From Candidatus Kerfeldbacteria bacterium (GTDB lineage Bacteria > Patescibacteriota > Patescibacteriia > UBA10025 > JAHIVO01): a stretch of DNA of 64,000 nt. This document shows, piece after piece, positions 2,447 to 22,262 of this stretch. How positions within the stretch are numbered: position 1 is the first letter of the stretch; the number at the start of each line of letters is the position of its first letter. A model generated the notes under the pieces. It did not search any database, had not been told where the DNA came from, and worked only from the letters and a program-made list of their open reading frames with translations. The translations under genes and the position numbers were made by a program. The DNA lies in assembly GCA_047946875.1 (NCBI GenBank), contig CP181398.1, positions 649,041-713,040 of the forward strand, read 5' to 3'.

Positions 2447-2851
2447 TTATACTTTCCTAACTCTAGTTATCTGATTTAATATATTTTCAATTACTCCTTC
2501 TATATTATTATAAATATCATAATTAGTAAAACGTAAAAAATCTATACTAAACGTCTCAATAAACTCTTGGCGCTTTTTATCATTGATCTTAGCTTCTTTG
2601 GTTAAAAAATGCGTTGGACCATCCACCTCTATAACCAACCTTAACTCTGGACAATAGAAATCTACCACATATCCACCGATGCTGTACTGACGACGAAACT
2701 TAAAATCTCCGATCTGACGACCTTTCAAATACCGCCAAAGAATCAATTCAGCCTTCGGCGACTCACGTCGTAGTTTTTGACGACGCTCTTTCATACTCGT
2801 GCAATTATATAATCTTGTCATATGATGGATTGACCTCCCCTTAATAGACAT
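2447..2851 (-). CDS. DUF559 endonuclease-domain protein (Vsr-like fold)
   Basis: 134 aa; ELILWRYLKGRQ...FRRQ...GGYVVDFYCPELRLVIEVDG..H is the classic DUF559 signature. Confidence 0.8.
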   Translation of the reverse strand: MSIKGRSIHHMTRLYNCTSMKERRQKLRRESPKAELILWRYLKGRQIGDFKFRRQYSIGGYVVDFYCPELRLVIEVDGPTHFLTKEAKINDKKRQEFIETFSIDFLRFTNYDIYNNIEGVIENILNQITRVRKV

Positions 2852-3092
2852 TTAATTATTATTCTCAACCCCTCCTTCATCCCCTCCTCAATTGAGGAGG
2901 GGAAAGGCATACACTATAAATATAACCATTTCATGGTGAGAGGTGGTGGAGTAAACAAAAAATCCCCATGGTTATTGGGGAAAGTATTATATATGTAAAT
3001 TACGATATTTTTATCTTCTAGTCAATTAATTACGATTTAATGTTTCTGGCATACATAATTTTACCTTTTATTAACAATAAACGAAAAAACAC

Positions 3093-3121
3093 TTGACGAA
3101 AGTATGAACAAGACTTAATAT
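3093..3121 (+). promoter_or_regulatory. promoter TTGACG-N17-TAATAT
   Basis: Hexamers with 17-nt spacing about 40 nt upstream of the 3160 gene; shares AAAGTATGAA(A)CA after the -35 with the promoter at 12805. Confidence 0.5.
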
Positions 3122-3159
3122 AATATAAATAAGTAAAAAATCAAAAAAGGAGGAAAACA

Positions 3160-3531
3160 TTGAACAGTGAACAATTAGTCCAACAAGTGCGTGATGGAGA
3201 TATTATGGAGTATACTCTGACCGGCGACATCGACGACCTTGTCGTGGACATGCTCGATTTCGCCATTACTTCCGAAAAAAACGAACATGAACTGCACCTG
3301 GTCAACCTGACAGCAGTCACCTCAATTACGGACTATGCAATCGGAAAATTCATCCTGATCCGAGAGATCCTGGATATTAAAAAGGAAAAGCTGGCTCTGA
3401 CACTGGGTGGCAGAGAACACCCACTTCTCGAGCGGCTAGCCTGTGCGTTTATGAACAAACAGGTTTATATCTACCCTTCAGCGGAAAAAGCGGTTGAAGT
3501 ACTACACCGCCCTCAGACTACTTCGACCTAA
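3160..3531 (+). CDS. STAS-domain-like protein (anti-sigma-factor-antagonist fold)
   Basis: 123 aa; TTG start 7 nt after an AGGAGG ribosome-binding site; GC-rich relative to surroundings; LTGDIDDLVVDML...LVNLTAV.SI.DYAIGKF resembles a STAS domain. Confidence 0.4.
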   Translation: MNSEQLVQQVRDGDIMEYTLTGDIDDLVVDMLDFAITSEKNEHELHLVNLTAVTSITDYAIGKFILIREILDIKKEKLALTLGGREHPLLERLACAFMNKQVYIYPSAEKAVEVLHRPQTTST

Positions 3532-3559
3532 CTCGAAATTCCCGGCTAAAAACAAACCA

Positions 3560-3590
3560 AGCTCGGCGTAACATCACCGAGCTTTTTTAT
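3560..3590 (+). terminator. rho-independent terminator
   Basis: AGCTCGG...CCGAGCT stem followed by a T-run. Confidence 0.6.
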
Positions 3591-3679
3591 TTATGTCTTG
3601 TAATCCGTCTACTTTTTTATCATCTTCTGGATTGTGACTTAATGTTTCTGACATATATTTGTATTTTTGATATAATTCT

Positions 3680-4771
3680 TCATTTATCATACCTCCCTAT
3701 CTCCTCCTTTATTGTCCTAGCAACTACTTCCGGATCCTGCTTTTCATCGAAAAATATATTATGATAATGCGTATTATCTATCCCCAGCACCCTCAACACT
3801 TCCCATACTTTATTCTGTTGATCTTTGAATGCCTCAGGCAATACTACCAAATGAGTAATATCTAGATTCTCTTTCTTAATATAAGATGACGCATCAAGTG
3901 CCTCACATAACCACCGTCCATTAGTCGTACGCAGAGGTATCTCACCATAGGCAGGGTTCTCAGCATCGGGGTTAGTAAAATATATAGCCTCCCCTTTCCG
4001 CCTGATATTCCCATTAGCCTCCAACTGTTTAACTAGTTCCTCTGCCTCAATTATCTTCTCACTTTCTGAGATCAATAAATATTCCTTACCCTCGGTGGCA
4101 TCTTCTGACATTACCCCTTTTTCTTTTAACAAACCTTCTACACTTCTTTTAAAATTTTCTTTTACCCCATCTGACAGTTGCAACTGCGGAGCATCAAGTG
4201 GATCTCCTTTTTCAGTAGTTATTGCATGACCCTGTTCATCTGTCTGTATTTTTTTTGGCTTACCTAACAGATCCGTAGCATCAGGCATATCCGTATTATA
4301 TTCATCATAAAGAGATATCAACCTAGCCTTGGGGAATGATTCCGTTAATGTCTTCGCCACCTCTATCCCCACCTTATCCGTATCAGTCAGCTTATCCGAC
4401 CATATCTTACCACTAGATAGATCATAATCCGCCAAGTAAGGGCTAAATGACTCAAACTCCACCTTACGACCACTTCGATAATCTTCCAGGATTTCATTCA
4501 TTTGGCATAAGGAAAAATCCACGCCTTCACGCATGGCTTCTTTTGATGCTTCCTCTATTTCTTCATCCAATTTATATTTCAATTGCTTATCTCCAGCAGC
4601 TATACTAAAAGCACTTTTGAATTTATCTCTAATACCATTCAATATCTTTCTGATTTGCGAAGGACTTTTCTCCTCTTCTGTTTCAACTTCTGGAGAATCA
4701 TAAACCACCTCGGTCCTTTCAACCTCGTCGTTCCGCTCCACCTCTGGATTGTGCTTTAATGTTTCTGACAT
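3680..4771 (-). CDS. acidic hypothetical protein; probable third gene of the ATPase/DUF4276 operon
   Basis: 363 aa, Glu/Asp-rich N-terminus, no recognisable domain; starts 27 nt downstream of the DUF4276 stop on the same strand. Confidence 0.5.
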   Translation of the reverse strand: MSETLKHNPEVERNDEVERTEVVYDSPEVETEEEKSPSQIRKILNGIRDKFKSAFSIAAGDKQLKYKLDEEIEEASKEAMREGVDFSLCQMNEILEDYRSGRKVEFESFSPYLADYDLSSGKIWSDKLTDTDKVGIEVAKTLTESFPKARLISLYDEYNTDMPDATDLLGKPKKIQTDEQGHAITTEKGDPLDAPQLQLSDGVKENFKRSVEGLLKEKGVMSEDATEGKEYLLISESEKIIEAEELVKQLEANGNIRRKGEAIYFTNPDAENPAYGEIPLRTTNGRWLCEALDASSYIKKENLDITHLVVLPEAFKDQQNKVWEVLRVLGIDNTHYHNIFFDEKQDPEVVARTIKEEIGRYDK

Positions 4772-4797
4772 TTAATATTATAGTTATATTTCAATAT

Positions 4798-5490
4798 TTA
4801 TCTACTGACAAAAGAATCAACCTCTGTAATAAATTCATTTAAGCTATTAATCTTAGATTTAACAGATAAATACAATTCGCTATAATCTAATGCTTTGATA
4901 GTTCTTTTTATGCTATTTTCAGTCTTTGTATATCTTAATCCCACAATTTTATATATATCGTCTAAATCTATTGATGGATGACTTCTACTCTCTGGATTAT
5001 CTCTAAAAGGATCAAAATCAACACCAGTGCTTACAAGTGATTCTGTAAGAGAAGGATGAATTTTTCTATAATGACTTACCTCACCTAAAAACCATGCTTC
5101 CACTTCCATAATCGCTAGTACAATCTTTATTGGGATATATTTAGTTGGAACACGGGTAGATAGACCCATTTTTAAAGCTGGAATTTCAGCATGCGTAAAT
5201 GGATATACATCTCTTAACCCTATGATCCTATCGTAACCGCTTTCTGATAACTTTTCACAATGCTCAATAATGTCCGATTTAACACTTGAGTCTCCGCCAC
5301 AATCACGTATTAAAACATAATATTCCTTTTTAGGATTAATTGATTTTGCTTCAATTATTGTTAATAAATTTTTTTCAAATCTTTTTGTTTTAGATACTGT
5401 AATATTATTTTGACCAATAACTTCAATTAATAGCCTTTCTGAAAAAATTTGTTCTGTTTTACCCTCGACAAATATTGCTAACTTTTTCAT
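4798..5490 (-). CDS. DUF4276 family protein (Toprim-like)
   Basis: 230 aa; N-terminal KLAIFVEGKTEQIF plus IRDCGGD look like a Toprim Glu and DxD motif; 4-nt overlap with the upstream ATPase gene. Confidence 0.65.
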   Translation of the reverse strand: MKKLAIFVEGKTEQIFSERLLIEVIGQNNITVSKTKRFEKNLLTIIEAKSINPKKEYYVLIRDCGGDSSVKSDIIEHCEKLSESGYDRIIGLRDVYPFTHAEIPALKMGLSTRVPTKYIPIKIVLAIMEVEAWFLGEVSHYRKIHPSLTESLVSTGVDFDPFRDNPESRSHPSIDLDDIYKIVGLRYTKTENSIKRTIKALDYSELYLSVKSKINSLNEFITEVDSFVSR

Positions 5491-6629
5491 TTAATATTTT
5501 CATCTCTTAAATAAAAATTATTTGTAAAGAAATCAAAATTATTAAGTCCAGTATATTTAAATTCATCAAATAGCTTCTTAGAATTTTCATAATTAAGGAT
5601 ACTACATTTTCCTCCTACTCTATTAATAATAAGCCATAACTCAATTGGGATATCATTCATGACAAAGCGATCATTCGTAGTCATTATTAATTGAGCGGGT
5701 GAATCATCAATTTTTTTCATTAACAATTTAATAAGTGCTTGAGATCTCTCAAAATCTAATCCTTCACCAATATCATCAATGAGTATACAGGTAGGTGTTG
5801 ACTCTAAATGTGAGTAATTCAATTGAATAACCAATGACAAAGCTCTAAACATACCTTGAGAGATATCTTGTTGGTTTGTTATTCCTTCAAGATCTTTTTC
5901 CTTAACTGATAAACCCTTTGCCTCTATCTTCATCCCAAAATCAGATATAATTGGTATAGTTTCTAAAAAAATATTTTCTAATTGATAATTAATTTTCTTC
6001 ATATCCTTTCTGATTACATTTACAAATTTCTGACCATATTTTTTTTGACCTGCATCAAAAATATCAATTAGTCTGTTTATATTTTTTAAATTAATTTTTT
6101 CAATATTTTTATTTTGATTAATTCCTGAAACCTGATCTTTCCCCATTTGACTTCCAAATGGATAATAAAGAGTTTGCTTTCCCCATTTATATAGGTCATT
6201 AAAAAATGGGTGCTGAATTAAATCTTTCCTTACTACACAGGCTAATTCATTATTCGATACTTGAAAATCAATACTTTTTTTAAGTTGTACTGCAAATATT
6301 TTTCCTTTACCATTACCCTTTCTTTCTAGAAATTTCTTTTTATCTACTATGAATTCTTCTTTTAGTACTTTAGAATTTTTATATTTCAAAATATATTTAA
6401 CAATTTGTTTTCCATTCTCAAATTCAATTTCATAATTTCCTGAATTATATATTAATTTTTGATCACCAGAAACTAATGCAGCGAATGCATTTATAATATT
6501 TAATATTCTTGTTTTACCTGACGCATTTTTTCCAACAAGTAAATTTTTCTTACCAACGTTAAACTTTTTAACATGCCATGCTTTGGGCGTATTTTCAAAT
6601 TGACTATACTTGATTGATTTTAATATCAT
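5487..6629 (-). CDS. AAA_21/AAA_15-type ABC-like ATPase (OLD/PARIS AriA-like)
   Basis: 380 aa; Walker A GKNASGKT; C-terminal ILIDDIGEGLD Walker B/D-loop and TTND H-loop. Confidence 0.7.
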   Translation of the reverse strand: MILKSIKYSQFENTPKAWHVKKFNVGKKNLLVGKNASGKTRILNIINAFAALVSGDQKLIYNSGNYEIEFENGKQIVKYILKYKNSKVLKEEFIVDKKKFLERKGNGKGKIFAVQLKKSIDFQVSNNELACVVRKDLIQHPFFNDLYKWGKQTLYYPFGSQMGKDQVSGINQNKNIEKINLKNINRLIDIFDAGQKKYGQKFVNVIRKDMKKINYQLENIFLETIPIISDFGMKIEAKGLSVKEKDLEGITNQQDISQGMFRALSLVIQLNYSHLESTPTCILIDDIGEGLDFERSQALIKLLMKKIDDSPAQLIMTTNDRFVMNDIPIELWLIINRVGGKCSILNYENSKKLFDEFKYTGLNNFDFFTNNFYLRDENIK

Positions 6630-6674
6630 ATATTTATTTATTTACTAATCTAAATCTAATCCATTTTTAACTTT

Positions 6675-6700
6675 AAATCAACCCTGCCATTTACCCTCAC
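6675..6700. repeat. partial copy (A1) of the ~75-bp island repeat
   Basis: AAATCAACCCTGCCATTTACCCTCAC matches 25 of 26 nt with the start of repeats A2 and A3; lies about 45 nt upstream of the ATPase start. Confidence 0.7.
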
Positions 6701-6722
6701 AAATATCCCAGAATATCTTATT

Positions 6723-7829
6723 TTATTTTCCTGACTTAGTTCGATTATCCTGTTTACACAACATTTGACAATTTTTTGCTGTTGTTTTACCTCCTTCATG
6801 CCATGGATCAATGTGATCAGCTTCCATTTCAGAAATATCCCACTTCTGTTTCTTTTTGTTCTGCTTTTTGCAATCAGGACATACACCCTTTTGCCTCTCA
6901 TACGCTTCTCGCTTCATTTTATCGGTGAACGCGCGAATAGAAAGGTGCTTCTCCTGCCCTGTGAGTACATAAGGATAGATACCATATTTTTTTGTCACAT
7001 CCTCATCCTGCATCAATTTAGCAATTTCTGTTTCAAGTTTTTTTACACTTAATTTATTATCTTTGAATTGATTATATAGTTCTCCCCAATTCACGCTAAC
7101 CATTTCTTTACGATAATTTGTAAAAGTCTTTCGCACCCATTCAATCACATCTTGAAAATATCTCCACAACTCGTCAGCGTTTTTATCGTGTTGGTGTTTG
7201 GCCATGTAATCTTCTATCTTACCTTCGTTGATCCAGAAAAGTGCAGTTTCTAAATAATCTTGTCGTATTGGTGATCCACTTACCAAATGTCCTCCGTCAT
7301 TTGCTAAAAGATATGCTGCACAGTTTGATTTACTAAATTTCAATTTAGCATCACTTAACCATGGCCCCGTATAAACCGCATTGCGTAACTCTTGGTCGGT
7401 CAATTTTTCACCTGCAATATTAATAATCTTGAACCAATCAAGTCGCTCCCGATCTGTACCTTCGCACCAGTAAATCATAAGTTCATAATTCAAAATCTGA
7501 TCTTGTTCCTCATCTGTTAAATTATGAAAATACTTTTCATCTAGTGAAAAATCACCATTTACATATTGACCGATACTAATAGTACGCTGTTGACCATCGA
7601 GCATTTCGAAACCATCCTCATTCTTCAACCAATACATCACATTAAGTGGAAATTTTTGTTTGATGGATATTATAACTTCTTTACGTTGTTTGTCATTATA
7701 GACAAATTCGCGTTGATACTTAGGGCGAATATCGAGCTTGCCACCATATGCCACAACACCTTCTTCGGCGCTGTCTTTATAATCAGCGATTACTTCACGC
7801 ACAGAGATTCGATGTAGTTCAATTTTCAT
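6723..7829 (-). CDS. DUF262 (ParB-like DGQQR nuclease) with C-terminal HNH endonuclease domain
   Basis: 368 aa; DGQQR motif at about residue 80; C-terminus ADHIDPWHEGGKTTAKNCQMLCKQDNRTKS is an HNH motif with CxxC. Confidence 0.75.
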   Translation of the reverse strand: MKIELHRISVREVIADYKDSAEEGVVAYGGKLDIRPKYQREFVYNDKQRKEVIISIKQKFPLNVMYWLKNEDGFEMLDGQQRTISIGQYVNGDFSLDEKYFHNLTDEEQDQILNYELMIYWCEGTDRERLDWFKIINIAGEKLTDQELRNAVYTGPWLSDAKLKFSKSNCAAYLLANDGGHLVSGSPIRQDYLETALFWINEGKIEDYMAKHQHDKNADELWRYFQDVIEWVRKTFTNYRKEMVSVNWGELYNQFKDNKLSVKKLETEIAKLMQDEDVTKKYGIYPYVLTGQEKHLSIRAFTDKMKREAYERQKGVCPDCKKQNKKKQKWDISEMEADHIDPWHEGGKTTAKNCQMLCKQDNRTKSGK

Positions 7830-7830
7830 A

Positions 7831-8874
7831 CTATTTTTTTACTTTCTTATTTTTTATAATAATTCGTGCATAAGTAACATTAACAATACCATTTACAATC
7901 ATATATAAATCACCATCAACAGCACCTCTTTTTTGAATTTCCTTCCTATATTTTTTATGCTCTTCTTTGTATCGTTTAACTCCAATTTCTATTCCTGAAT
8001 TAGATATACCTAAACCAATAATCTCGAATTGTTTCGGATTATATTTATCGAGAAAAGTGATTGGCACACCCATATCACCGCCATAGTCATAAGGGATATC
8101 AGTGTATTTATTTACATTAATTGCGTTATAGTTTTCATATTTAGGATATTCCTCAGATTTATATTTTTTATAAAGTGTAATATTCTCTTTATGTTTATCA
8201 ACTTCTAAGTTAGTGAACCAACATGAAGTTGATACACGAGCAATTTTATTACCACTCTCATCAATATGATGAAACTTTTCCCAATCTTCTGGTACAATAA
8301 AAAACATACCAACATTAAAATTAGTGTAGCCAGTTCGAATTCTATCCTCCTTAAATAGTTTGAAAATTTCCTTATAAGTCATTGAATTAGTATTGCCAAT
8401 AATCAAAAACTTTTTATCATATTCTCTCAGCTGTGCAACATACTCGCGAAACAAAGAAAAGGGCGGATTAGTTACGACAATATCAGCCTCTTTGAGTAGA
8501 TCTATACACTCATCGCTACGAAAATCACCAGTGCCAATCATCTCGGTTATGAATTCTTCTGGATCAGGAATACGGTTGCCATTTTTATCACCAGTATATT
8601 CCAATTTATAAGGTTGTTCTTGGGTAAATAAGCTTGCTTCTTTGTAATGTGTAGCAATCAATTTTTTCAATCCTAAATGTTCAAAATTCATGCTGAAATA
8701 CTTGACGAAATTACTTTCTTTCGGATCATCGCAGTTACAAAAAACTACTTTGCCACGAAATTGATCTTTATAATGTTTTAGCTCTTTTTCAATATCAGAG
8801 AGTTGAGTGTAAAATTCGTCTTTCTTTTCTTTGCTTGCTTTGTGCAAATTTTTATTTGAAGATTTTTTTTTCAT
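7831..8874 (-). CDS. EcoRI-family N6-adenine DNA methyltransferase
   Basis: 347 aa; N-terminal KNLHKASKEKKDEFYTQLSDIEKEL...VVFCNCDDP and DIVVTNPPFSLFREY closely parallel M.EcoRI as I recall it. Confidence 0.75.
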   Translation of the reverse strand: MKKKSSNKNLHKASKEKKDEFYTQLSDIEKELKHYKDQFRGKVVFCNCDDPKESNFVKYFSMNFEHLGLKKLIATHYKEASLFTQEQPYKLEYTGDKNGNRIPDPEEFITEMIGTGDFRSDECIDLLKEADIVVTNPPFSLFREYVAQLREYDKKFLIIGNTNSMTYKEIFKLFKEDRIRTGYTNFNVGMFFIVPEDWEKFHHIDESGNKIARVSTSCWFTNLEVDKHKENITLYKKYKSEEYPKYENYNAINVNKYTDIPYDYGGDMGVPITFLDKYNPKQFEIIGLGISNSGIEIGVKRYKEEHKKYRKEIQKRGAVDGDLYMIVNGIVNVTYARIIIKNKKVKK

Positions 8875-8900
8875 AAATTAATATTCCAACTTTTTTATTT

Positions 8901-8980
8901 AAAATCAACCCTGCCATTTATCCTCACCCCCCACACACCAATTTCACCTATAAACTATGGGGTAACCTTGTTTTTAATCC
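8901..8980. repeat. island repeat copy A2 (~80 bp)
   Basis: Near-identical to A3 (9186-9260) over about 70 bp; sits about 20 nt upstream of the methyltransferase start. Confidence 0.8.
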
Positions 8981-9064
8981 ATAATACACTTTTGAAAATA
9001 ACTTTAAGTTTTTCTCTCTTTTTCGAGCATCTTTTTCGGAAGAATAAGCTTCATAATAATATAT

Positions 9065-9169
9065 TTATGGTGAAAATAAAATTACAGCCATAACCACTAC
9101 AAAAATAATTACAAATAATACTATTCTTTTACCTGTACCACCAATCCAAAATTTATTATATTTTTCCAT
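9065..9169 (-). CDS. 34-aa single-TM peptide (MEKYNKFWIGGTGKRIVLFVIIFVVVMAVILFSP)
   Basis: Hand-translated; a repeat copy (A3) lies immediately upstream, as for the neighbouring genes; below the ORF-track length cutoff. Confidence 0.3.
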   Translation of the reverse strand: MEKYNKFWIGGTGKRIVLFVIIFVVVMAVILFSP

Positions 9170-9185
9170 ATTAGATAAATTTTAA

Positions 9186-9260
9186 TTACCCCTGCCATTT
9201 ATCCTCACCCCCACATACCAATTTCACCTATAAACTATAAGGTAACCTTGTTTTTAAACA
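9186..9260. repeat. island repeat copy A3 (~75 bp)
   Basis: CCCCTGCCATTTATCCTCACCCCCACA(C/T)ACCAATTTCACCTATAAACTAT..GGTAACCTTGTTTTTAA shared with A2; overlaps the 3' end of the RhuM ORF. Confidence 0.8.
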
Positions 9261-9680
9261 CCAATTCTCTAAACACCTTTTTAAATGAAAACTTTTATTA
9301 ATAATGTAGCCATCAATCATATGCTGTTTTAATACCTTTGTCGCCCAAATACGAAATTGCGTAGCGTGTTTAGAATTAACGCGATAACCTACAGAAATAA
9401 TTGCATCAAGATTATATAAATTAACATCACGCTCTATATATCGTTTTCCTTCTTTTTGAACTATCCGGAAATTCCGGATAGTTGCTTTATCTGTTAATTC
9501 ACCTGTTCTATAAATATTTTTTAAATGCTCATTAATCGTACGTACATCTACATCGAAAACTTCAGCGATCTGCTTTTGAGATGCCCAAATAGTCTCTAGA
9601 TTAAAATCTCCACGAAATTCAATTGCTCCAGTTTTAGCCTGGTAAATAACAATATTTTTAATAGATTTATTTTTATTCAT
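9228..9680 (-). pseudogene. 3'-truncated RhuM-family (virulence/Fic-associated) gene
   Basis: 150 aa versus about 330 aa for the family; homology (IVIYQ..G.IEF...ETIWASQKQIAEVF...QFRIWATKVLKQHMIDGY) ends where repeat A3 begins; the last ~24 residues are read from sequence in and next to the repeat. Confidence 0.6.
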
Positions 9681-9744: not shown

Positions 9745-12700
9745 CTAACCTTCCCACTTGTCTTCGCAGATTTCTTTAAAATCACAGGTCTTACACCAGA
9801 AGCCTGGATTTGCCTTAAAATCACTCTTCCTTATTTCCAAGATCTTATCTACTAATTTATCTTTCAATTTATCAAGTTCAGAATCCTTAGCAGTAAATGA
9901 GATCGGTTGATTTGCATTAACATAAAGATAAGTTAACTTAGCTGGTTTTAGTTTAAGAATATCCTTAGCAGCTAATGCATAGATCATCAACTGTTCTTTC
10001 TCATCCACTGACAACTTACCATTTTTTGGAACTTTACCAGTTTTGTAATCTATAATTTCTACTCCAGCGGAGCTGGACCCCGGTTTGCGGGGATCATTTC
10101 CATTAACATCACCAATTGGGTCTACTCTATCTATGACCCCTTTGAATGTATGTTCACCTAGTTTCAAATGAAATGGTTGTTCTAAGAATAATGGTACTGG
10201 AAAATCACCAGCTAATGAATCGTAATACATCTTCAATGACTCTCGACCCTGTTCATAATATTCTTCTTTATGCTGAACTGACAAATACCAATCCTCTATC
10301 CACTCTTGCTCATACAGTCCCATTAGTTCATCAAAACCAATTTTGACTTGGCCTTTGGCTGATCGATCTTGTACCATTTTGAAAAACTTAAATAAGGTAT
10401 TGTGAATTGTCTTACCATAACTAAACATATGCTTACCTTCTACTGGTATACGTAATAGATGTGCGTATTTGAATTGCTTAGGACAATTTTTGAAAGCCCG
10501 AAGTTGAGTATAGCTTGATTTCTCTGGAATTACTTTTCGTAAGTAATCTAACTCTTTAATTTTCTCTTGTTTAACATTATCGGTAGCTTTGAGTCTTTCT
10601 GTCTTATCTACCTCCCCTGTCCCTTTCTTCACTTCGAAACCAGTCTCGATCAAAAATCTGGATGGTTTTTTCTTGCGAGAGCCACCGTAATCATCTGCGG
10701 AAGTAAAATATAATCCCTCCTTAGCTCTGGTCATCGCTACATAGAATAATCGTCTCTCCTCCTGCAAATGAATATCCCCTTCTGGGATAATTTCTTTTAC
10801 CAATTCATCAGGTAGTTCAATCGGCTCTTTTCTTTCTATGGTTGGGAATCTTTTATCAACCAAATTTACTATAAATACATTTTTGAATTCCAATCCCTTA
10901 GCGCCATGAATAGTCATGATCTTAACTGCATCAGGCCCTTCATCCCAAGTTTGATTCATCGATCCAGATTCCCCTGCATCCTGAGATTGCTCAAATTCAT
11001 AAAGAAAATTCTTAACTGACTTATCATCATTAACTGCTTCAAAATCCTCTATCTTCCTGAAGAACTGATTAAGATGAATTATGCGTTCCATATTTTCTGG
11101 ACTATCTTTTGCAGTGATCTCTTTGAAATATCCAGAATCTTTCATAAATCTTAGAGCTACTGATAGTACATTTTTATCTCTAGTTAGCTGGGTATGCTTC
11201 TCTATCATGCCTAAGATTTTCTCAATGACATGATGTCCGCTTGATGAAATGCCAGGAATCCCTCTAACTTGTCCCATTGCTTCAAATAATGACATACGCT
11301 TCATAGCTGCATAACGTGATATAGACATCAGATAATCAGTTGGCAATTTAAACTGCTTAAAATTGAGCACTCTCCACATAGCAGCGCTCTCATGATAGTT
11401 ATCCAACATTTTCATATAGGCTACGATATCCATAATCTCTGGTTGACCATACAAACCTTTGGATGCCAAAAACTGATGCGGTATGTCTAGACGTGATAAT
11501 GAATTTATAAACTCCGCAGCGTATGAATTTGCCCTGATCAGGATAGCAAAATCACTCCATAATAATTTTCCGGCAGAGCCGGATCCCGCTTTGCGGGGCT
11601 TATTTCCAGTTTTCAGTTCTAATATTTTCTTAGTAACTCCACTTGCTTCGTCTAAATACGAATTGAAATGTAGATGCCGAATAACACCATCTTTACCAAT
11701 AGCTGATTTTAGCTTCTTACTTATTTTATTCTTTAGTGGAGCGCCCTTGGGATCTATCTTCCCTTTGGTCAGCTGATACTCAAGACGATTTGGGTCATTC
11801 TGTTTAATAAATTTATATGACAAATCTAGGATATTTTGTTTGGTACGATAATTGTCAGTTAGCACAATCTCATCAGACTCAGGAAAATCTTTTTTAAATT
11901 CCAAAATATTACTAATAGCAGCACCACGAAATTTATAGACAGATTGGTCATCATCCCCTACTACTGTAAGATTATTTTTTGGAGCAGATAATAATTTGAT
12001 TAATTCATACTGTGCGTAATTAGTATCTTGAAACTCGTCTACCAATATGTATTTGAACTGTTCTTGATATTTCTTTAATATTTTTGGACGCGTCTTGAAT
12101 AGCTTAATGGTATAAAGTATCAGATCACCGAAGTCCATGGCACTATTTTCTAACAGCAACTGCTGATAAACCTTGTAAGCATTAGCTACTTCCTGAACTC
12201 TTTTGTCTTCTGAAATTTCTTCGTCAACATCATCCTGACTACTATCTGGCTTTAGCTTATTAGCATATTCAATATATTCATCAGGTAATATGTTCTCATC
12301 TTTGGCTCGAGAAAAATGCCTAACTAAGGCTTGAACAAACTTGGTTGGATTACCTAAAGGACGATAGTAATCAAGATCAAATTTATCAAAATTCTTTTGA
12401 ATTAATAGAACTTGGTCTGTAACACTCAATAATTTAAAGTCAGGCGGTAAGCCAATCTCCAAGGCATTATCTTTCAATATTCTTTCACAAAAAGCATGAA
12501 AGGTAGATACCCAAAGATCAACATATCCCATTGGTAATAATACATCTATCCTCTCTTCCATCTCAGCCGCTGCTTTCTCTGTAAAAGTCAGAGCTAATAG
12601 ATGGTCAGTGTTTATCTTCTTCTCTAATATTAACCAAGCTATTCTCTCTGTAATCACGGTTGTTTTGCCAGTACCCGCTCCTGCTACAATTAGCAAAGGA

Positions 12701-12759
12701 CCCTCACCAAATGTGACGGCTTTTTTCTGGGCAGGATTAAGATTATCAGTAATGTTCAT
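9745..12759 (-). CDS. UvrD/PcrA-type SF1 helicase fused to a C-terminal PD-(D/E)XK (Cas4/AddB-like) nuclease
   Basis: 1004 aa; Walker A GAGTGKTT, helicase motifs, C-terminal EIIDYKTGK and a Cys cluster (C..C......C). Confidence 0.8.
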   Translation of the reverse strand: MNITDNLNPAQKKAVTFGEGPLLIVAGAGTGKTTVITERIAWLILEKKINTDHLLALTFTEKAAAEMEERIDVLLPMGYVDLWVSTFHAFCERILKDNALEIGLPPDFKLLSVTDQVLLIQKNFDKFDLDYYRPLGNPTKFVQALVRHFSRAKDENILPDEYIEYANKLKPDSSQDDVDEEISEDKRVQEVANAYKVYQQLLLENSAMDFGDLILYTIKLFKTRPKILKKYQEQFKYILVDEFQDTNYAQYELIKLLSAPKNNLTVVGDDDQSVYKFRGAAISNILEFKKDFPESDEIVLTDNYRTKQNILDLSYKFIKQNDPNRLEYQLTKGKIDPKGAPLKNKISKKLKSAIGKDGVIRHLHFNSYLDEASGVTKKILELKTGNKPRKAGSGSAGKLLWSDFAILIRANSYAAEFINSLSRLDIPHQFLASKGLYGQPEIMDIVAYMKMLDNYHESAAMWRVLNFKQFKLPTDYLMSISRYAAMKRMSLFEAMGQVRGIPGISSSGHHVIEKILGMIEKHTQLTRDKNVLSVALRFMKDSGYFKEITAKDSPENMERIIHLNQFFRKIEDFEAVNDDKSVKNFLYEFEQSQDAGESGSMNQTWDEGPDAVKIMTIHGAKGLEFKNVFIVNLVDKRFPTIERKEPIELPDELVKEIIPEGDIHLQEERRLFYVAMTRAKEGLYFTSADDYGGSRKKKPSRFLIETGFEVKKGTGEVDKTERLKATDNVKQEKIKELDYLRKVIPEKSSYTQLRAFKNCPKQFKYAHLLRIPVEGKHMFSYGKTIHNTLFKFFKMVQDRSAKGQVKIGFDELMGLYEQEWIEDWYLSVQHKEEYYEQGRESLKMYYDSLAGDFPVPLFLEQPFHLKLGEHTFKGVIDRVDPIGDVNGNDPRKPGSSSAGVEIIDYKTGKVPKNGKLSVDEKEQLMIYALAAKDILKLKPAKLTYLYVNANQPISFTAKDSELDKLKDKLVDKILEIRKSDFKANPGFWCKTCDFKEICEDKWEG
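10064..10104. repeat. GC-rich palindromic in-frame mini-insert, copy 2
   Basis: CCAGC-GGA-GCTGG followed by CCCCG-GTTTG-CGGGG; encodes NGNDPRKPGSSSAG on the gene strand. Confidence 0.6.
11570..11609. repeat. GC-rich palindromic in-frame mini-insert, copy 1
   Basis: CCGGC-AGA-GCCGG followed by CCCGC-TTT-GCGGG; encodes TGNKPRKAGSGSAG; about 80% nt identity to the copy at 10064. Confidence 0.6.
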
Positions 12760-12786
12760 AACATTATTTTATCAAAAAAACCAACG

Positions 12787-13136: not shown

Positions 13137-13206
13137 AATTAGTTCATTCAAACTGACGGTGATAATAAAGTCACTGCGGTAAACATCGAATGGACAAGGA
13201 GTTAAC

Positions 13207-13677
13207 ATGTATATTTACATTAAGCCGGAAGCGGTCGAAGAACTGAAAAAGTACTTAGAAGGTCTTGATCAGGTCAAGATTGCCATTGAGTATGGCACGG
13301 AATCGGGTAGGAATTTGATAAGTACCCATCAAAATCCGTTCGGTATTACTTTTTCCATGGTAGATATTCCCGAAGAATTCATCGAAGAGATCACTATCCA
13401 GGACCACCAAATTGATAATGAAAATTGCACCCGGATAGAAGGGATCTACCGACATGAAGGTGCGGTATTGCAGTGCCATTTGCAAATCATATTAACTAAC
13501 AATGGTATGAATGAATGTGCTAGAGATATTATGGTAATCTCTATCACCGCTCCCAACTTGAAATCTCTTCAGACGATTTACACCCAGTTCCGATTGGGAA
13601 AAATTGAACCCGAAGAAAACTGGGAAGTTGACCAAGTAGGTCAAGAAAGTCCTTCTGATGAGGACAAAACAGAATAG
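13207..13677 (+). CDS. hypothetical protein
   Basis: 156 aa, GC-rich, acidic C-terminus. Confidence 0.5.
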   Translation: MYIYIKPEAVEELKKYLEGLDQVKIAIEYGTESGRNLISTHQNPFGITFSMVDIPEEFIEEITIQDHQIDNENCTRIEGIYRHEGAVLQCHLQIILTNNGMNECARDIMVISITAPNLKSLQTIYTQFRLGKIEPEENWEVDQVGQESPSDEDKTE

Positions 13678-13700
13678 CGAATAATCGCACAAAATAGAAT

Positions 13701-13739
13701 AACCCCGTTTGTATTTATACACTCGGGGTTAATTTTTTA
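13701..13739 (+). terminator. rho-independent terminator
   Basis: AACCCCG...CGGGGTT stem followed by T6. Confidence 0.65.
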
Positions 13740-13744
13740 TTCCA

Positions 13745-14477
13745 AAAAATTGAATAAAAAAAAGACCGTCCCCACCATGTTGCATCAGTATGCTACTAGC
13801 GGGAACGGTTAATCTAATATTCTATAATAATTTTTTGATCTAAACGAATCCAGTGGGAAACGGCATTTGAATGCCTCCGAGGTTTACCCTTTTTTGCTGG
13901 GCCGGCTGTATCTAATGTGTCCCCTACGTATACATTAACGCGGGGTGTGGAAAACAGGACTACGGATCACTAGGTGAATCCGTAAGTGGCCATATACGAC
14001 TTGCGTGTCATAGTAGCTTCCCTTTCGGGGGTCTAACGTATGGGTTTGTGGGCCATGCCGCTCTTTTTTTGGCGGCTGTGTTTCTGTCTTCTTTTTTCCG
14101 GCTGAGGCCAGATAGAGTCTGGCGGCCAGGTGCCGGATTTTTGTTTCAGTCTTCTTTTTGTCGACGAATTGTCGTCGCGCAATGGCCAGCGGCGCTAGCT
14201 TTTTCTTTTTTTTTGAACTACTGCTAGGGTCGCAGGACTACTCGGCGGCGACATACGACGGCCGGGTCGGTGAAAGTTTAATTAAAATGCGCTTTGCGCA
14301 GGTGGTTGCCGAAATTCGGCGATCCTCGGTTGAACATTTTTTTTACTCCTTTCTACCCTGGATGGTCATGTGTTAGGTTAATTCTTTCAATGAACGCGTA
14401 CTACACATATACATGCTCTACCGGTGCCAATTTAGGCGTATTACTCACGGTTATGGCATGTTATTGCGTAACCAATA
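13745..14477 (-). ncRNA. candidate large structured ncRNA (~700 nt), class unknown
   Basis: About 50% GC in a ~30% GC genome; no ORF longer than 74 aa; many GC stems; minus-strand promoter TTGACA-N17-TAGTAT at 14478-14506; minus-strand terminator (9-bp stem plus T10) at 13753-13809. Confidence 0.3.
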
Positions 14478-14527
14478 ATACTAGCGCATATTGCATAACT
14501 TGTCAAGGGGTAATATAAAGATATAAA

Positions 14528-14553
14528 AAAAGCATCTTTTATTCAAAGATGCT
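14528..14553. terminator. bidirectional hairpin terminator
   Basis: AGCATCTTT-TATTC-AAAGATGCT flanked by A-runs and T-runs. Confidence 0.5.
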
Positions 14554-14903
14554 TATCGTTTTAACAGTCGCTCTAGCTCAACAGACAAAGAATCATCGTA
14601 CTTGCTCACTTTTTCACAAGTAAAATTTTGTCCATTAATCCAACACTTCCAAACTATATTGTTTTCCCAAAATTTACGGTTCTGCTTCCAAATTAAGAAA
14701 AAAGATTTGGCTGTCGGACCCGATTTACAAAGAATACTAATCTTGCCTTTAGCAGTATTACCTGAGCTTTGAATAACTCTTCCATAGAAAGGCTCTCTAT
14801 GTCCATCTATGTAAATCTCTACTACATCCCACATTTTTGGGATATAATCCGGTCCATTTTCATGGAAAGTACGCATAATATCCTCCAATGTATAAAAGAT
14901 CAT
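14553..14903 (-). CDS. hypothetical protein
   Basis: 116-aa ORF. Confidence 0.45.
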   Translation of the reverse strand: MIFYTLEDIMRTFHENGPDYIPKMWDVVEIYIDGHREPFYGRVIQSSGNTAKGKISILCKSGPTAKSFFLIWKQNRKFWENNIVWKCWINGQNFTCEKVSKYDDSLSVELERLLKR

Positions 14904-14999
14904 TTTCGATTATAGCTTACATTCTTAAGTAAATATCGTCAATTACAGTTTTTGTAACAAAAAAGACCCTTTAATCTAGAGGGTCTTCAATTCATTAAT

Positions 15000-15329
15000 T
15001 TACATTTCTCCGCCTTCACCTTCAATAGCAGAGCGGAGTGACTCTACCATATCATCGACTCTAGACCTCTTGTCACCAGACATCGCTATATAGTTCTCCT
15101 GATCCATTGCCAAACTCAACCACTCACTTTCATCACTATCTTCTTTAATACCAATCTGCTGGTAAATAGCAATTAATTCCGTTGGATTTTTACCATTTAA
15201 ATTTTCCTTTAGAAATTGAGCCGTGGCAGTAGCTTTTTCCCACATGGCCCTGCCCTCAGGTGATTTCCCAGCTTCACTCATATATTTAAATATTAGTTTA
15301 TTATAATTTAATTTTAAACCATATATCAC
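15000..15329 (-). CDS. hypothetical protein
   Basis: 109-aa ORF; the true start may be an internal Met. Confidence 0.45.
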   Translation of the reverse strand: MIYGLKLNYNKLIFKYMSEAGKSPEGRAMWEKATATAQFLKENLNGKNPTELIAIYQQIGIKEDSDESEWLSLAMDQENYIAMSGDKRSRVDDMVESLRSAIEGEGGEM

Positions 15330-15360
15330 TTAATATCAAATCGCCCTTTTACGCTAGGGG

Positions 15361-15389
15361 TTGACAAATAACAATAAAGGTGATACTAT
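15361..15389 (+). promoter_or_regulatory. promoter TTGACA-N17-TACTAT
   Basis: Hexamers upstream of the 15446 operon. Confidence 0.55.
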
Positions 15390-15445
15390 GTTTAGTTAAC
15401 TATTTTTGAAAGAAACTTGAAATAATAATACAAACGGAGGTAACA

Positions 15446-15955
15446 ATGAAGTTACATCACACCATTTTGACCATAATTTTGGTCATCAGTTTAGCAACCT
15501 TCTTTGGTTGCAATGGGGAATCATCAAACATGTCAACTGAAGCTCAGTTGGAAGAAACTATTAGAAACCTTCCTACCGGGTATAACGACATGATGGTTCT
15601 TTATTCGGAAATTCTCAACCTAGAAGATGGTTTTATAAAACTATTGGACAGTTACGATGAATTCCGAGTAACTATGGACTCCATTCGTGCATGTACACCG
15701 GAAGAAGAGCTACTACCGGATTCGATCTATGTGCAGAATGGCAGGTTCAACGACGACATTTTCAGTGTGGAGAACCTTTGGAATAAGAAGGTATACCAGT
15801 ACAACGAAATGGGTGGAGTAATGCATCCTGACAGTTTGATGGCAGGCAATACCGCCATGAACATCGAACTACCGGCTGGTATCAACATCCAAGCCGAAGA
15901 GTCAAAGACTGATGAAGAAAAAGTTCAAAAAATCTTAGAATCATTGAATCAGTAA
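15446..15955 (+). CDS. putative lipoprotein
   Basis: 169 aa; signal peptide with lipobox FFGC. Confidence 0.55.
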   Translation: MKLHHTILTIILVISLATFFGCNGESSNMSTEAQLEETIRNLPTGYNDMMVLYSEILNLEDGFIKLLDSYDEFRVTMDSIRACTPEEELLPDSIYVQNGRFNDDIFSVENLWNKKVYQYNEMGGVMHPDSLMAGNTAMNIELPAGINIQAEESKTDEEKVQKILESLNQ

Positions 15956-15974
15956 CAAGAAGGGAGTTCAAAAA

Positions 15975-16451
15975 ATGAGACATGAAAAGTATTTCATCGA
16001 AAGTACTGGCGAAGTTAAACTCGCTAAAATCATTTTCCATGTATTCGGCCTTATTTGCCTGATCGTCTTGCTTAGTTTCGTGGGCAAAGTGGTCTTCTTT
16101 CCAGCGCAAGTAGCGCAGGAAATCGCTGAAGAGACTTTCGACGGTAGTCGGATGATCTATGTCTACGAAGACTTCTTCAACAAGTACGAAGCGGCCAAAG
16201 CAACAGCCATCAAGGTGAAAAATCACCAGAGGGCTCTGGATGACTTCAAATTCGGCCATCCGGACCCGGATAATTGGGATTATAATGATCGTCAAGAGTA
16301 TGATCGTTTATCCTCAATGATTCCAGCCGTGATGAATTTATTGGCCGACCAAGTCGGACAGTATAACGCCGACGCCGCGAAGATCAACCGCGCTTTTCTG
16401 AAAGGCGATAAATTGCCTGACAGTCTGGTCATTGAAGAACTCACGCAATAA
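15975..16451 (+). CDS. membrane-anchored hypothetical protein
   Basis: 158 aa with an N-terminal TM helix. Confidence 0.5.
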   Translation: MRHEKYFIESTGEVKLAKIIFHVFGLICLIVLLSFVGKVVFFPAQVAQEIAEETFDGSRMIYVYEDFFNKYEAAKATAIKVKNHQRALDDFKFGHPDPDNWDYNDRQEYDRLSSMIPAVMNLLADQVGQYNADAAKINRAFLKGDKLPDSLVIEELTQ

Positions 16452-16469
16452 CCCAAGGAAGGAAGAAAG

Positions 16470-17048
16470 ATGAAAACGAGAAAAATTCTCATTCTAACTT
16501 GTATGGCTTTGTTCGTCCTGATGGCGAATGGAGTCGTCCTGGCGGATAACGATTTTGAAGCGTCCTCCAAAGCTGTCAGTAGAATTCAGGCTCAGGACCA
16601 ATTGCAAACCGCTCAGAATTTCGAACGGTTATACAATGCGGTCCCGCCACCCGAAATGCAGGACTCCCAGGAACGACGCCAGCTGGTCAAACGGCTGAAT
16701 CGTTTCAATGTTTCTTCAAAGATCAGTTATATTTATCTGATCGACCGGGGAATCATCATGGCCTTCTTTACGGTCAAGGGAAAAGTCAGCTCAGTTAACT
16801 CCATGCTGACCTGCACAAAACAATTGGTTTACGATGGTTACGGTACCAGCTATGGCCGAGGTGGCGTTCACGCGGTTGCTAGTCCTGATCTCGACGGTAG
16901 CTATGGTACCAATGGTAATGGAGTATTCTTCTTCACCGATCTCGATACTTATATCGAATGGAACGGCAAGTACCTACTCTGTGATCAGTACATAAAGCTC
17001 AACCAACCGCCGGTCCTCGTTCTCGAAACTGAGGAAGGAGGCAAATAA
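16470..17048 (+). CDS. secreted hypothetical protein, tandem paralog A
   Basis: 192 aa, signal peptide; about 70% identical to the next gene. Confidence 0.6.
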   Translation: MKTRKILILTCMALFVLMANGVVLADNDFEASSKAVSRIQAQDQLQTAQNFERLYNAVPPPEMQDSQERRQLVKRLNRFNVSSKISYIYLIDRGIIMAFFTVKGKVSSVNSMLTCTKQLVYDGYGTSYGRGGVHAVASPDLDGSYGTNGNGVFFFTDLDTYIEWNGKYLLCDQYIKLNQPPVLVLETEEGGK

Positions 17049-17049
17049 G

Positions 17050-17631
17050 ATGAGATTGAACAAAAATCATATCATCTTCATCGCCATCGCTATGGCTATA
17101 CTCCTTCTGACTATCGGTTGTGGAAAGAATAAAGAATTTTCCAACTCATCCAAAGCCGTCAGTAACATTCAGGCCAAGGACCAGCTGAAAACCGCTGAAA
17201 ATTTCGAACGGTTATACAAAGCGGTCCCACCTCCGGAACTTCAGGATTCCCAAGAACGGCGTCAGCTGGTTAAACGGCTGAACCGATTCAATGTAGCCAA
17301 CAAGATCAGCTTTATCTACATCATTGACTTCGGGAAAATCATTGGATTTTTCACGGTCAAAGGTAAAGTCAGTTCAGTTAACTCTATGTTAACTTGTACT
17401 GAACAGCTGGTTGATGATGGATTTGGGACGGGTACTGGTGAAAATGGACGCGATAATGTCCATATTGTTCCCAGTCCTGATCTTGACGGTAGCTATGGTA
17501 CCAATGGTAAAGGAGTATTCTTCTTTACTGATCTCGATATCTATGTGGAATGGAATGGCACTTATATGCTTTCCGACCAGTACATCAAACTGGATCAACC
17601 ACCGGTCCTTATGCTCAAAGTGAAAGCCTAG
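17050..17631 (+). CDS. lipoprotein, tandem paralog B
   Basis: 193 aa; lipobox TIGC; shares the conserved KGKVSSVNSMLTCT motif with paralog A. Confidence 0.6.
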   Translation: MRLNKNHIIFIAIAMAILLLTIGCGKNKEFSNSSKAVSNIQAKDQLKTAENFERLYKAVPPPELQDSQERRQLVKRLNRFNVANKISFIYIIDFGKIIGFFTVKGKVSSVNSMLTCTEQLVDDGFGTGTGENGRDNVHIVPSPDLDGSYGTNGKGVFFFTDLDIYVEWNGTYMLSDQYIKLDQPPVLMLKVKA

Positions 17632-17670
17632 AGCAAAAGAGGCTAGTTAACATAACGTTCTTTATTATAA

Positions 17671-21291: not shown

Positions 21292-22212
21292 TTATTTGAC
21301 TGCTGCAGCCCCGGCACTAATTTCTGCTATCTCTGATGTAATTGCCTGTTGTCTAGCTTGGTTGAATGTTAGATTCAAATCATCAATCATATCTCCAGCT
21401 GCATCAGATGCATTACGCATGGCTACCATTCGTGAAGAATGTTCAGATGCATTTGATTCTAACAATGCTTGATATACTTGCAACTCAATCAAACGATGCA
21501 ACATCTGATCCAAAACTACATCAGGAGATGGTTCGAATGTATATTCCAAATCTGTAGTTTCAGCTTCTACATTATCCTTCTTATCTTTTATAACATGACC
21601 CAACTCATTATCTTCTTTTGAAATAGGTAATAATTTTCTAATATAAGCTTCTTGAGATACGGCAGATTTATAATCAGTATAAGCAATTACTACTCTTTCA
21701 TATTTTCCAGATAAATAATCTGTGATAACCATCTTTGCTATAGCGCTTATTTCCGTAACACTTTCTGCAGTTTCTGGTTTAGGAAAGTTAGCAATAATCT
21801 TATGATTATATTGATGCATAATATCTTTACCACGATCACCCATCAAAAATATGTCCGCTATCTCTTCAATATTTTTTTCTTTTTTCTTTTTATCTAAATA
21901 CCCTGCAACTTTTTCAACAATCTCACGATTAAATCCGCCACATAAACCACGGTTTGAATTAATCATTATTATGCCTATTTTTCCGTCTTTTGATTCTTTT
22001 CTTTCTAATAAAGGATGGTGAGAAGCATCTGTCTTGGCAGATAGATTCTTAACAATATCCCAAGCCGTATTTGCATAATGACGGGTTTCCAAAACAGACT
22101 TCACTGCTTTTCTCATTTTTGAAGCAGCAACCAACTCCATAGCTTTAGTAATTTTTTTAGTACTACTTATGGAGCGAAGACGTCTTTTTATTTCTTTAGT
22201 TGCTAGGGGCAT
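21292..22212 (-). CDS. atpG: F0F1 ATP synthase gamma subunit
   Basis: 306 aa; N-terminal KEIKRRLRSISSTKKITKAMELVAASKMRKA. Confidence 0.9.
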   Translation of the reverse strand: MPLATKEIKRRLRSISSTKKITKAMELVAASKMRKAVKSVLETRHYANTAWDIVKNLSAKTDASHHPLLERKESKDGKIGIIMINSNRGLCGGFNREIVEKVAGYLDKKKKEKNIEEIADIFLMGDRGKDIMHQYNHKIIANFPKPETAESVTEISAIAKMVITDYLSGKYERVVIAYTDYKSAVSQEAYIRKLLPISKEDNELGHVIKDKKDNVEAETTDLEYTFEPSPDVVLDQMLHRLIELQVYQALLESNASEHSSRMVAMRNASDAAGDMIDDLNLTFNQARQQAITSEIAEISAGAAAVK

Positions 22213-22262
22213 AATTTATTTCTTTCAGGCATAGCCTGATCCGGCTCTGCCGGAATCTTTAT

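Follow-up and report, generated by a model that had tools for sequence, protein, structure and literature searches.

In-frame double-hairpin repeats of 30 nucleotides in a helicase-nuclease gene and in unrelated genes of Patescibacteria

Introduction

Palindromic repeats that lie in frame within genes have been described in Rickettsia. The Rickettsia palindromic elements (RPEs; Ogata et al. 2000/2002) span ~100-150 bp, add 30-50 amino acids (aa) and, as summarised in PMC10969869, comprise ten families found only in Rickettsia; they end in a CGTC tag (PMC3733652). Here we report on two short GC-rich segments that lie in frame within a helicase-nuclease gene of a Candidatus Kerfeldbacteria bacterium (Patescibacteriota; assembly GCA_047946875.1, contig CP181398.1, positions 649,041 to 713,040), and on similar dispersed repeats in other members of the Candidate Phyla Radiation (CPR). 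The 64,000-nucleotide (nt) stretch analysed is called the window, and the repeat the CPR element. An original prediction, made from the sequence alone, had compared the two segments with RPEs.

A second described system consists of repetitive extragenic palindromes (REPs), their hairpin-forming doublets (REPINs) and the REP-associated tyrosine transposases (RAYTs), and includes REPs that are intragenic (PMC3733652, PMC5581495). Hairpin-forming GC clusters of yeast mitochondria (e.g., GC42) and 'byp' elements have also been described (PMC4478555). Insertion sequences (IS) of the IS200/IS605 group, with their miniature derivatives, and DNA uptake sequences are further points of comparison. The known minimal ends of IS200/IS605 elements require tens of further nucleotides besides each hairpin, and DNA uptake sequences occur hundreds to thousands of times per genome, about once per kb. 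CPR bacteria (Patescibacteria) have tiny genomes with hardly any room between genes.

Results

Two in-frame inserts and an empty site

The host gene encodes a protein with a nuclease domain of the AddB/Cas4-like, 4-Cys type (Table 1). Pfam UvrD-helicase, UvrD_C and PDDEXK_1 were matched on its orthologues; the window protein scored 489 bits with the NCBIfam PcrA model, under the cutoff, and matched the PcrA structure 1pjr with an E value of 2e-102. The original prediction placed two segments of ~70% GC and about 80% identity, each forming two adjacent short hairpins, in frame near residues 390 and 890 of this AT-rich minus-strand gene, and the analysis bore this out. The 30-nt cores, called copies A and B, have 73% GC, compared with 35% in the rest of the gene and 34% in the window, and are identical at 25/30 nt in a gapless alignment. 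Folded as single-stranded DNA, each copy gave two abutting hairpins (z = -3.6 and -4.0). A degenerate 38-nt pattern had exactly two matches in 64 kb, at 10064..10101 and 11570..11607, against a shuffle expectation of 0 (100 shuffles).

The closest orthologue, P0001 (95% aa identity; 22-sequence alignment), lacked both inserts, and the copy A segment was missing from 21/21 aligned orthologues. At site 1, which holds copy B, AAC AAG is directly followed by AAA TTA in the orthologous locus L001, and the window reads AAT AAG, CCCCGCAAAGCGGGATCCGGCTCTGCCGGA, AAA TTA: a gain of exactly 30 nt, on a codon boundary and without target-site duplication (TSD). At site 2, the 30-nt core (copy A) sits within a variable loop in which the window and L001 differ by one further codon. 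Judged by the comparison with L001, the true insert unit is 30 nt (10 codons), not the 42 nt and 14 aa first proposed. The Asn-Lys preceding Pro-Arg-Lys, which had been counted as part of the insert, is ancestral host sequence at site 1, and the upstream GGAAAT.A. taken as part of the motif is flanking DNA outside the family consensus. The two helicase genes share 85.8% DNA identity, with 66.7% at third codon positions. These alignments show copies A and B as having entered the helicase gene after its divergence from the closest known relative. The double-insert protein (insert-spanning junction peptide, e.g., ...NKPRKAGSGSAGK...) is encoded in exactly this form on four contigs of differing length, and is thus not a one-off assembly error.

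In the AlphaFold2 model (mean predicted local distance difference test score, pLDDT, 69.7), the domain cores were confident and pLDDT fell below 50 at residues 387-396 and 884-897, the two insert sites. In the model, helix 368-385 precedes site 1 and strand 404-408 follows it, and the alignment with PcrA (1pjr) picks up again at residue 396, just ahead of motif IV. In the nuclease domain, site 2 is modelled at the tip of a β-hairpin (strands 870-881 and 900-906) that separates the catalytic Asp from the D-x-K. Orthologues in the 22-sequence alignment vary in length at both sites. Both inserts are therefore located in low-confidence loops of the predicted structure, as had been anticipated.

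Table 1. Principal features of the window (positions in the 64,000-nt stretch)
Feature	Coordinates	Strand	Details
UvrD/PcrA-like superfamily 1 (SF1) helicase with C-terminal PD-(D/E)XK nuclease	9745..12759	minus	1004-aa open reading frame (ORF)
Copy B	11569..11598	minus	CCCCGC-AAA-GCGGGA, TCCGGC-TCT-GCCGGA; PRKAGSGSAG, residues 388-397; covariance model 49.5 bits
9 nt upstream of copy B	11599..11607	minus	GGAAATAAG; flank, partly ancestral (AAT AAG = N-K)
Copy A	10063..10092	minus	CCCCG-CAAAC-CGGGG, TCCAGC-TCC-GCTGGA; PRKPGSSSAG, residues 890-899; covariance model 44 bits
9 nt upstream of copy A	10093..10101	minus	GGAAATGAT; within variable loop, one codon longer than L001
Copy C	22225..22254	plus	TCAGGC-ATA-GCCTGA, TCCGGC-TCT-GCCGGA; intergenic, atpA (22263..23810) / atpG (21292..22212); covariance model 48.3 bits; fold z -5.4
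RAYT-like Y1 (HUH) transposase-family gene, decayed	38179..38703	minus	PF01797 33 bits; NF047646 55 bits

Copies elsewhere in the source genome

A covariance model made from members of the family, run with filters off, found exactly three copies in the window. The third, copy C, is oriented opposite to the flanking atpA and atpG; the orthologous spacer in L130 is 11 nt long and without the element. A fourth copy lay ~9 kb outside the window (L141 20045..20074), near the C-terminus of a protein identified by Pfam as DUF5671. It is more diverged (TCCACC-CAA-GGTGGA, TCCGCC-TCT-GGAGGA), gives the in-frame peptide STQGGSASGG and has AAG and AAA as its flanks. The source genome thus yielded four copies, three of them intragenic, in the ~83 kb scanned (the window plus ~19 kb beyond its ends).

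A dispersed family in Patescibacteria

The original prediction had looked to further copies for support of a mobile origin, and these were present in unrelated genes of other Patescibacteria genomes. Species-representative genomes were scanned with one hairpin-2 sequence and its flanks, giving at least 118 stretches; the counts across taxa are accordingly lower bounds, biased toward the queried hairpin-2 variant. The full double hairpin was found at no fewer than about 25 loci, of 38-64% GC. Among the matches listed, carriers were almost all labelled Uhr-, Kerfeld-, Doudna-, Parcu- or Saccharibacteria or 'Patescibacteria group'. Hairpin-2 matches from GC-rich genomes had no hairpin 1 and resemble unrelated sequence or chance matches. 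The covariance model found extra copies at L081 2922 and L129 10703, which the pattern search had missed because hairpin 2 also varies. The family consensus, TCCGGC-GAA-GCCGGA followed by TCCGGC-TCC-GCCGGA, is almost its own reverse complement; the unit consists of two adjacent 15-nt hairpins, each with a 6-bp GC stem and a 3-nt loop.

By sequence inspection, the host genes look like those for TsaD, SOD, MiaA, an S8 peptidase, RecJ, a YhhQ-like protein, GyrA, RluD, RpoC, MetK, a Lys/Ala-rich protein (with two copies), a DHH phosphoesterase, GrpE, PheT, HolB and MraY. They are unrelated in function, as are the positions of the element within them, and copies also occur in spacers of distant CPR lineages. 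In the flanks of 31 copies, position -1 was G in 21/31, and positions +1 and +2 were each A in 27/31, so that the preferred surroundings are A(A/T)G before the unit and AA after it.

The subtype of copies A and B (stem 1 CCCCGC-AAA-.CGGG) had only one further copy (L128) in the scan of the metagenome collection, which argues against a burst of this subtype. Because A and B have this rare stem 1 and a similar 9-nt upstream sequence (GGAAAT.A.) in common, one was probably derived from the other, by local re-insertion or ectopic gene conversion. To a single arrival followed by local copying within the helicase gene (ectopic gene conversion, template switching or short-range re-insertion), which competes only with two independent arrivals, we give somewhat less than even weight. 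Local clustering elsewhere favours it, with three copies in 8 kb of L085 (two in one ORF), two in L041 and two in L081. Against this, A and B differ at 5/30 positions, including a compensated pair, so that any copying was not recent, and their upstream flanks are alike at only 7/9 nt, partly by ancestry.

Several loci deserve separate description. On the Parcubacteria contig L085, 6141..6251 and 6959..6988 comprise two copies in one Lys/Ala-rich histone-like ORF and one in MetK. Longer inverted repeats (e.g., CCACGGCT...AGCCGTGG) flank the intergenic copies at L004 ~815..870, L020 ~3970..4025 and L093 ~6910..6970, which lie at their apex; either these copies landed in an existing hairpin loop or the palindrome grew outward. 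A Xer-type tyrosine recombinase gene in a Patescibacteria metagenome-assembled genome (MAG; L044 3326..3383) contains a tandem 27-nt repeat, GATCCGGCTCTGCCGGAAAAACTGTGA x2, each unit of which holds hairpin 2 of the element and is translated as SGSAGKTVR repeats. MAGs automatically labelled 'uncultured Gammaproteobacteria' (L074, L104 and L120, CAYHWG01...; L094, CAZFGG01...; locus GC 44-52%) have perfect elements of the CPR type, which lie in frame in MiaA, an S8 peptidase and GrpE: either the label is wrong or the element exists outside the CPR. Opitutales MAGs (L003, L018, L039, L049, L058, L082, L089, L096) carry an unrelated dispersed repeat with the same 18-mer (...AACAACGCTTCGCTT-GATCCGGCTCCGCCGGAA-CAGGATCGCTTCGCG...) at several sites per genome.

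Other origins were considered. The seven 18-mer matches in viral contigs all lacked hairpin 1, and a phage vector was rejected on that basis. Rfam gave 0 matches at the gathering threshold in the window, which excluded a known RNA family there. An artefact (assembly error, adaptor or synthetic linker in metagenome assemblies) has a negligible probability: constructs often contain GGATCC (Gly-Ser) linkers, and sequence sub-strings matched only primers and linkers in the literature, but the exact double-insert protein recurs as described, the genes with in-frame copies are real and come from numerous independent studies and assemblers, the stems vary by covariation (below), and no plasmid record covered >=80% of the query. 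The last result also led us to reject a plasmid, vector or linker origin. No paper linking Patescibacteria to in-frame palindromes was found in a literature of incomplete coverage, an absence of evidence only. The 30-nt repeats are thus a CPR-wide family of in-frame double hairpins for which no description was found in the searchable literature.

Constraint on structure and choice of reading frame

Across 30 copies, 96.7% of cells were paired in the two-hairpin structure, against 10-49% when the partners were slid. Six of the 12 pairs had changed on both sides (22 cells), a score reached in 0/500 shuffles; the stem variants include GGC/GCC, CGC/GCG, GCC/GGC, AGGC/GCCT and AGC/GCT. One-sided pair changes were not seen in these copies, and G.U intermediates are therefore missing; this is more in keeping with pairing in DNA, or on both strands, than with an RNA structure of one strand. 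As the conserved structure, a single 30-nt palindrome or cruciform was rejected, its pairing and covariation being no better than those of shuffles. An intrinsic terminator was likewise rejected, since the stems are followed by A-runs and not T-runs.

Through the paired changes, the encoded residue varies at position 2 (G/R/A/T) and position 4 (A/G) while pairing is kept, so that nucleic-acid structure, not the peptide, is under constraint. The idea of a selected peptide motif, a G/S/A-rich decapeptide evolved or retained at the protein level, is close to refuted. It has in its favour the constant frame and the recurrent SGxAGSGSAG(K), which with the next Lys resembles a GxxxxGK P-loop. However, the same 30-mer recurs between genes; its codons are the rarest synonymous ones of a 34% GC genome (CGC 4%, TCC 5%, CCC 7%, GCG 9%); residues 2 and 4 vary freely under maintained base pairing; the closest orthologue lacks the peptide; and the hosts have no common function.

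The consensus is 3x10 nt long and stop-free in all six frames. Frame 0 gives SGEAGSGSAG forward and SGGAGSGFAG backward, a Gly/Ser/Ala peptide from either orientation because the unit is a near-palindrome of 30 nt; the other frames give PAKPDPAPP and RRSRIRLRR. Copies inside recognisable genes, whichever way round they lay, were all in frame 0, reading S-G-x-A-G-S-G-S-A-G, and more than 20 copies in this frame with none in the other two exclude chance ((1/3)^20, <1e-9). The single offset copy in a long ORF came from a 62% GC locus and an ORF without recognised homology. Our inference is that selection removes the frames rich in Arg or Pro. Insertion by a codon-aware mechanism seems unlikely because the A(A/T)G and AA flanks do not alone fix the frame. 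With a length that is a multiple of three and an open frame, ordinary translation is the simplest reading.

Recurrence at the site-1 loop

Element-type peptides were present in 5/121 helicase orthologues, the window included: four at the site-1 loop (window, P0005, P0006 and P0003), one at site 2 (window) and one at a third position (P0106). Enrichment across the whole gene was rejected, as six copies in 121 orthologues amount to ~1 per 60 kb, near background; within the gene, only the site-1 loop stands out. Site-1 DNA was read for three of the copies. The stems were CGC/GCG and GGC/GCC in the window, a decayed GCC/GGC type (CCCACC...GGCGGA) and GGC/GCC in L002 (P0005), and GCC/GGC in both hairpins of L129 (P0006), where the insert is offset by one or two codons. 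The original prediction would have been undermined by a conserved motif in distant orthologues; the differing stems and patchy distribution of the site-1 members (P0005, P0006, P0003) speak against a conserved functional motif. A parallel to this recurrence comes from recB of two Xanthomonas species, in which different REPs occupy about the same site (PMC3733652).

These data bear on a host-maintained functional signal, under which the 30-mer would be a binding or processing site of conserved CPR machinery, kept because it is useful: for example, a 12-6-12 recombinase-type site with GGATCC at its centre, a signal for DNA uptake or repair, or a stem-loop in mRNA. The DNA sequence is indeed conserved across lineages of 34-64% GC with its stem pairing maintained, DNA-repair and replication hosts recur as they do for REPs and uptake sequences (PMC3733652), and intergenic copies occupy the apex of longer inverted repeats. 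On the other hand, presence is patchy, in that a 95%-identical orthologue lacks both copies and 116/121 orthologues lack any; the density, ~1 per 20-60 kb, is far under that of uptake sequences; arm-to-arm symmetry is lost when one hairpin changes; no T-run follows the stems; and positions within hosts are unrelated. Such a signal is therefore unlikely.

Other orthologues (P0019 and P0013; also P0004, P0011, P0016, P0028 and P0074) had different G/P/S/A/R-rich inserts at recurrent variable sites, site 2 among them. Those of P0019 and P0013 are located at L130 12404..12460 and 12683..12770 and at L131 8245..8330. Example peptides are ...GPSGRQAPSGHSA..., ...LP(V/I)ARSK... and ...GLLRRPDEIGTPRND..., and the DNA holds short GC hairpins such as CCC-TTC-GGG and GCCC-TCA-GGGC. 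There may be several families of in-frame GC-rich mini-inserts in the CPR. Orthologues P0003, P0022, P0025, P0046 and P0110 were ~1320-1385 aa long and contained intein domains (PF14890/PF01079); P0003 combined an intein with the site-1 element peptide.

RAYT-like genes and the helicase neighbourhood

The Y1-family protein of the window (38179..38610) scored 55 bits with NF047646, 'REP-associated tyrosine transposase', short of the curated cutoff of 80, and was a far better match to it than to IS200. Its HUH motif reads YIH, versus HVH in intact homologues. Other CPR genomes have intact RAYT-like homologues, in some cases two at one locus and in one case ~700 nt from the helicase orthologue; many homologues lie on ~1 kb contigs, as if repeats break assemblies. 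The covariance model found no element near the window gene. Linkage of the element to RAYT was rejected, as the RAYT-like genes from four genomes were all unflanked by it.

RAYT-like ORFs hold an in-frame, REPIN-like pair of 28-nt inverted arms (window 38410..38500, L135 6208..6290, L132 6229..6311). Each arm is itself a hairpin, GCGCACCCT-CGAA-AGGGTGCGC and GCGCACGTT-TTCC-AACGTGCGC, and the two encode the conserved peptides DRTLExVRS and ERTFSNVRS. Among the DNA examined, these hairpins were confined to the RAYT-like ORFs and not dispersed. Window 36901..38130 and 41450..41896 hold a PIF1-family helicase directly downstream of the RAYT-like pseudogene and DUF7670 genes; DUF7670 genes recur next to RAYT-like genes in the window, L132 and L135.

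A local mobilising gene beside the helicase was rejected, since its neighbours form a defence-type island without a transposase. This island (2447..9680) adjoins the helicase and is absent from the syntenic locus of L001. It encodes a DUF559/Vsr-like protein (2447..2851), DUF4276 (4798..5490) with an AAA_21 ATPase (5487..6629), a GmrSD-N + HNH protein of type IV restriction-like character (6723..7829), an EcoRI-like adenine methyltransferase (7831..8874) for which no cognate endonuclease is obvious, and a RhuM-family protein that is truncated (9228..9680). Another block that L001 synteny lacks, 13200..17650, lies between the helicase and a Pro_CA_2 gene and has eight ORFs of ~110-190 aa with no Pfam match. 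It has GC-rich patches (14096..14325 and 16349..17251), with local stretches of up to 77% GC, one of which is a long hairpin, TCCGGCT-[28 nt]-GCCGGA, at 14097..14137; Rfam gave no match. The block may be acquired DNA or unannotated RNA.

Discussion

The helicase segments are likely to be members of a dispersed, non-autonomous, REP/RPE-like repeat family of Patescibacteria that selection has filtered to a benign frame. The element would insert with little regard to frame, beside A(A/T)G and AA sites, and purifying selection would then retain the copies that encode a flexible Gly/Ser/Ala linker in tolerant loops or termini. Our guess is that the insertion chemistry is of the single-strand, hairpin-recognising kind, supplied in trans by an IS200/IS605- or RAYT-type (Y1 HUH) enzyme, because hairpin substrates, the lack of TSD and a short preferred 5' target fit such chemistry.

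The likeness to RPEs suggested by the original prediction held for behaviour and type of origin, not for family membership, which fails on size, sequence and host. Like RPEs, the CPR element consists of hairpin palindromes in frame in unrelated housekeeping ORFs of reduced-genome, host-dependent bacteria, adds a peptide at fold-compatible positions, and has no known transposase of its own. Unlike RPEs, it is only 30 bp (10 aa) long, is flanked by A(A/T)G and AAA in place of a CGTC tag, has Patescibacteria as its hosts, comprises a unit found in several CPR classes, and is a near-perfect palindrome with the same peptide type in both orientations.

The dimensions of the CPR element fall within those of REPs and REPINs (20-40-bp palindromes, stems of 5-13 bp, adjacent dimers). 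REPs too are GC-rich stem-loops, often paired, with sub-families that differ by complementary stem changes; some lie within ORFs, especially in replication and repair genes, and the source genome has a RAYT-like gene. In contrast, G.T stem pairs are frequent in REPs and missing from the CPR element, whose copy number looks low and whose sampled copies are mostly intragenic rather than extragenic. The arrangement of a RAYT gene flanked by repeats (REPtron) was not found at six RAYT-like loci or in the window, and the assignment of an enzyme therefore stays a guess.

IS200/IS605 elements and their miniature derivatives share hairpin ends, the lack of terminal inverted repeats and TSD, and a short target; the G at -1 in 21/31 copies is compatible with such a 5' target, a matter of compatibility only. 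The CPR unit differs in being two abutting hairpins alone, and no cognate TnpA was identified. [quoted passage not shown] Yeast GC clusters are similar as sporadic hairpin islands of ~30-45 bp, GC-rich in an AT-rich genome, with structure-constrained substitution and no known mobilising enzyme, but they have AG/ACT direct-repeat flanks and are mostly intergenic, whereas the CPR element causes no duplication. Byp elements are skipped by the ribosome, unlike the CPR unit with its open frame in multiples of three. The CPR element thus extends the known in-ORF palindromes of Rickettsia and Proteobacteria, including those in repair genes, and introduces no new principle.

Several observations weigh against a mobile, selection-filtered repeat. 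Seen as a simple selfish transposon, the repeat is weakest in its apparently modest copy number and in the divergence of its copies: five orthologous helicase loci had 0 copies in ~85 kb of flanking DNA, and copies within one genome differ as much as those between classes, unlike a bursting MITE or REPIN family, which favours slow turnover over a recent burst. No active transposition was seen, and site 1 provides the one clean empty/filled pair. The GTAG/CGTC tag of REPs is absent, GTAG appearing solely as a loop variant in L081. The RAYT-like gene of the window is decayed, an in-frame TAA costing ~30 N-terminal residues, and none of six RAYT-like loci (L132-L137, four genomes) had the element within ~6 kb. 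The frame bias is put down to selection by argument alone, and the taxon counts are biased toward one hairpin-2 variant. Finally, recurrence at site 1 may reflect either a hot spot or an old insertion followed by compensatory drift and many precise losses.

A broader proposal, that the repeat is a phylum-wide, translation-neutral 'nano-element', a 30-bp double hairpin whose length in threes, stop-free frames and palindromic form evolved toward such neutrality and which is spread between classes by a conserved hairpin-specific single-strand DNA enzyme or by horizontal exchange, is tentative and in our judgement has roughly one chance in three. If it holds, this would be the smallest protein-coding selfish repeat described, and the places where it has inserted would chart, as a map made by nature, which loops of CPR proteins are permissive. 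A repeat able to live inside essential genes would explain how repetitive DNA persists in gene-dense genomes, and may be behind some G/S/A/P-rich inserts of CPR proteins that so far lack an explanation. As a marker cleanly found by a covariance model, the 30-mer could serve to track gene flow among uncultured lineages and reduce mis-annotation, and its sites flag insertion-tolerant loops useful for protein tagging in the few cultivable Saccharibacteria. Were a Y1/RAYT-like enzyme to move the element, hairpin-directed single-strand transposition would extend to a minimal substrate of 30 nt.

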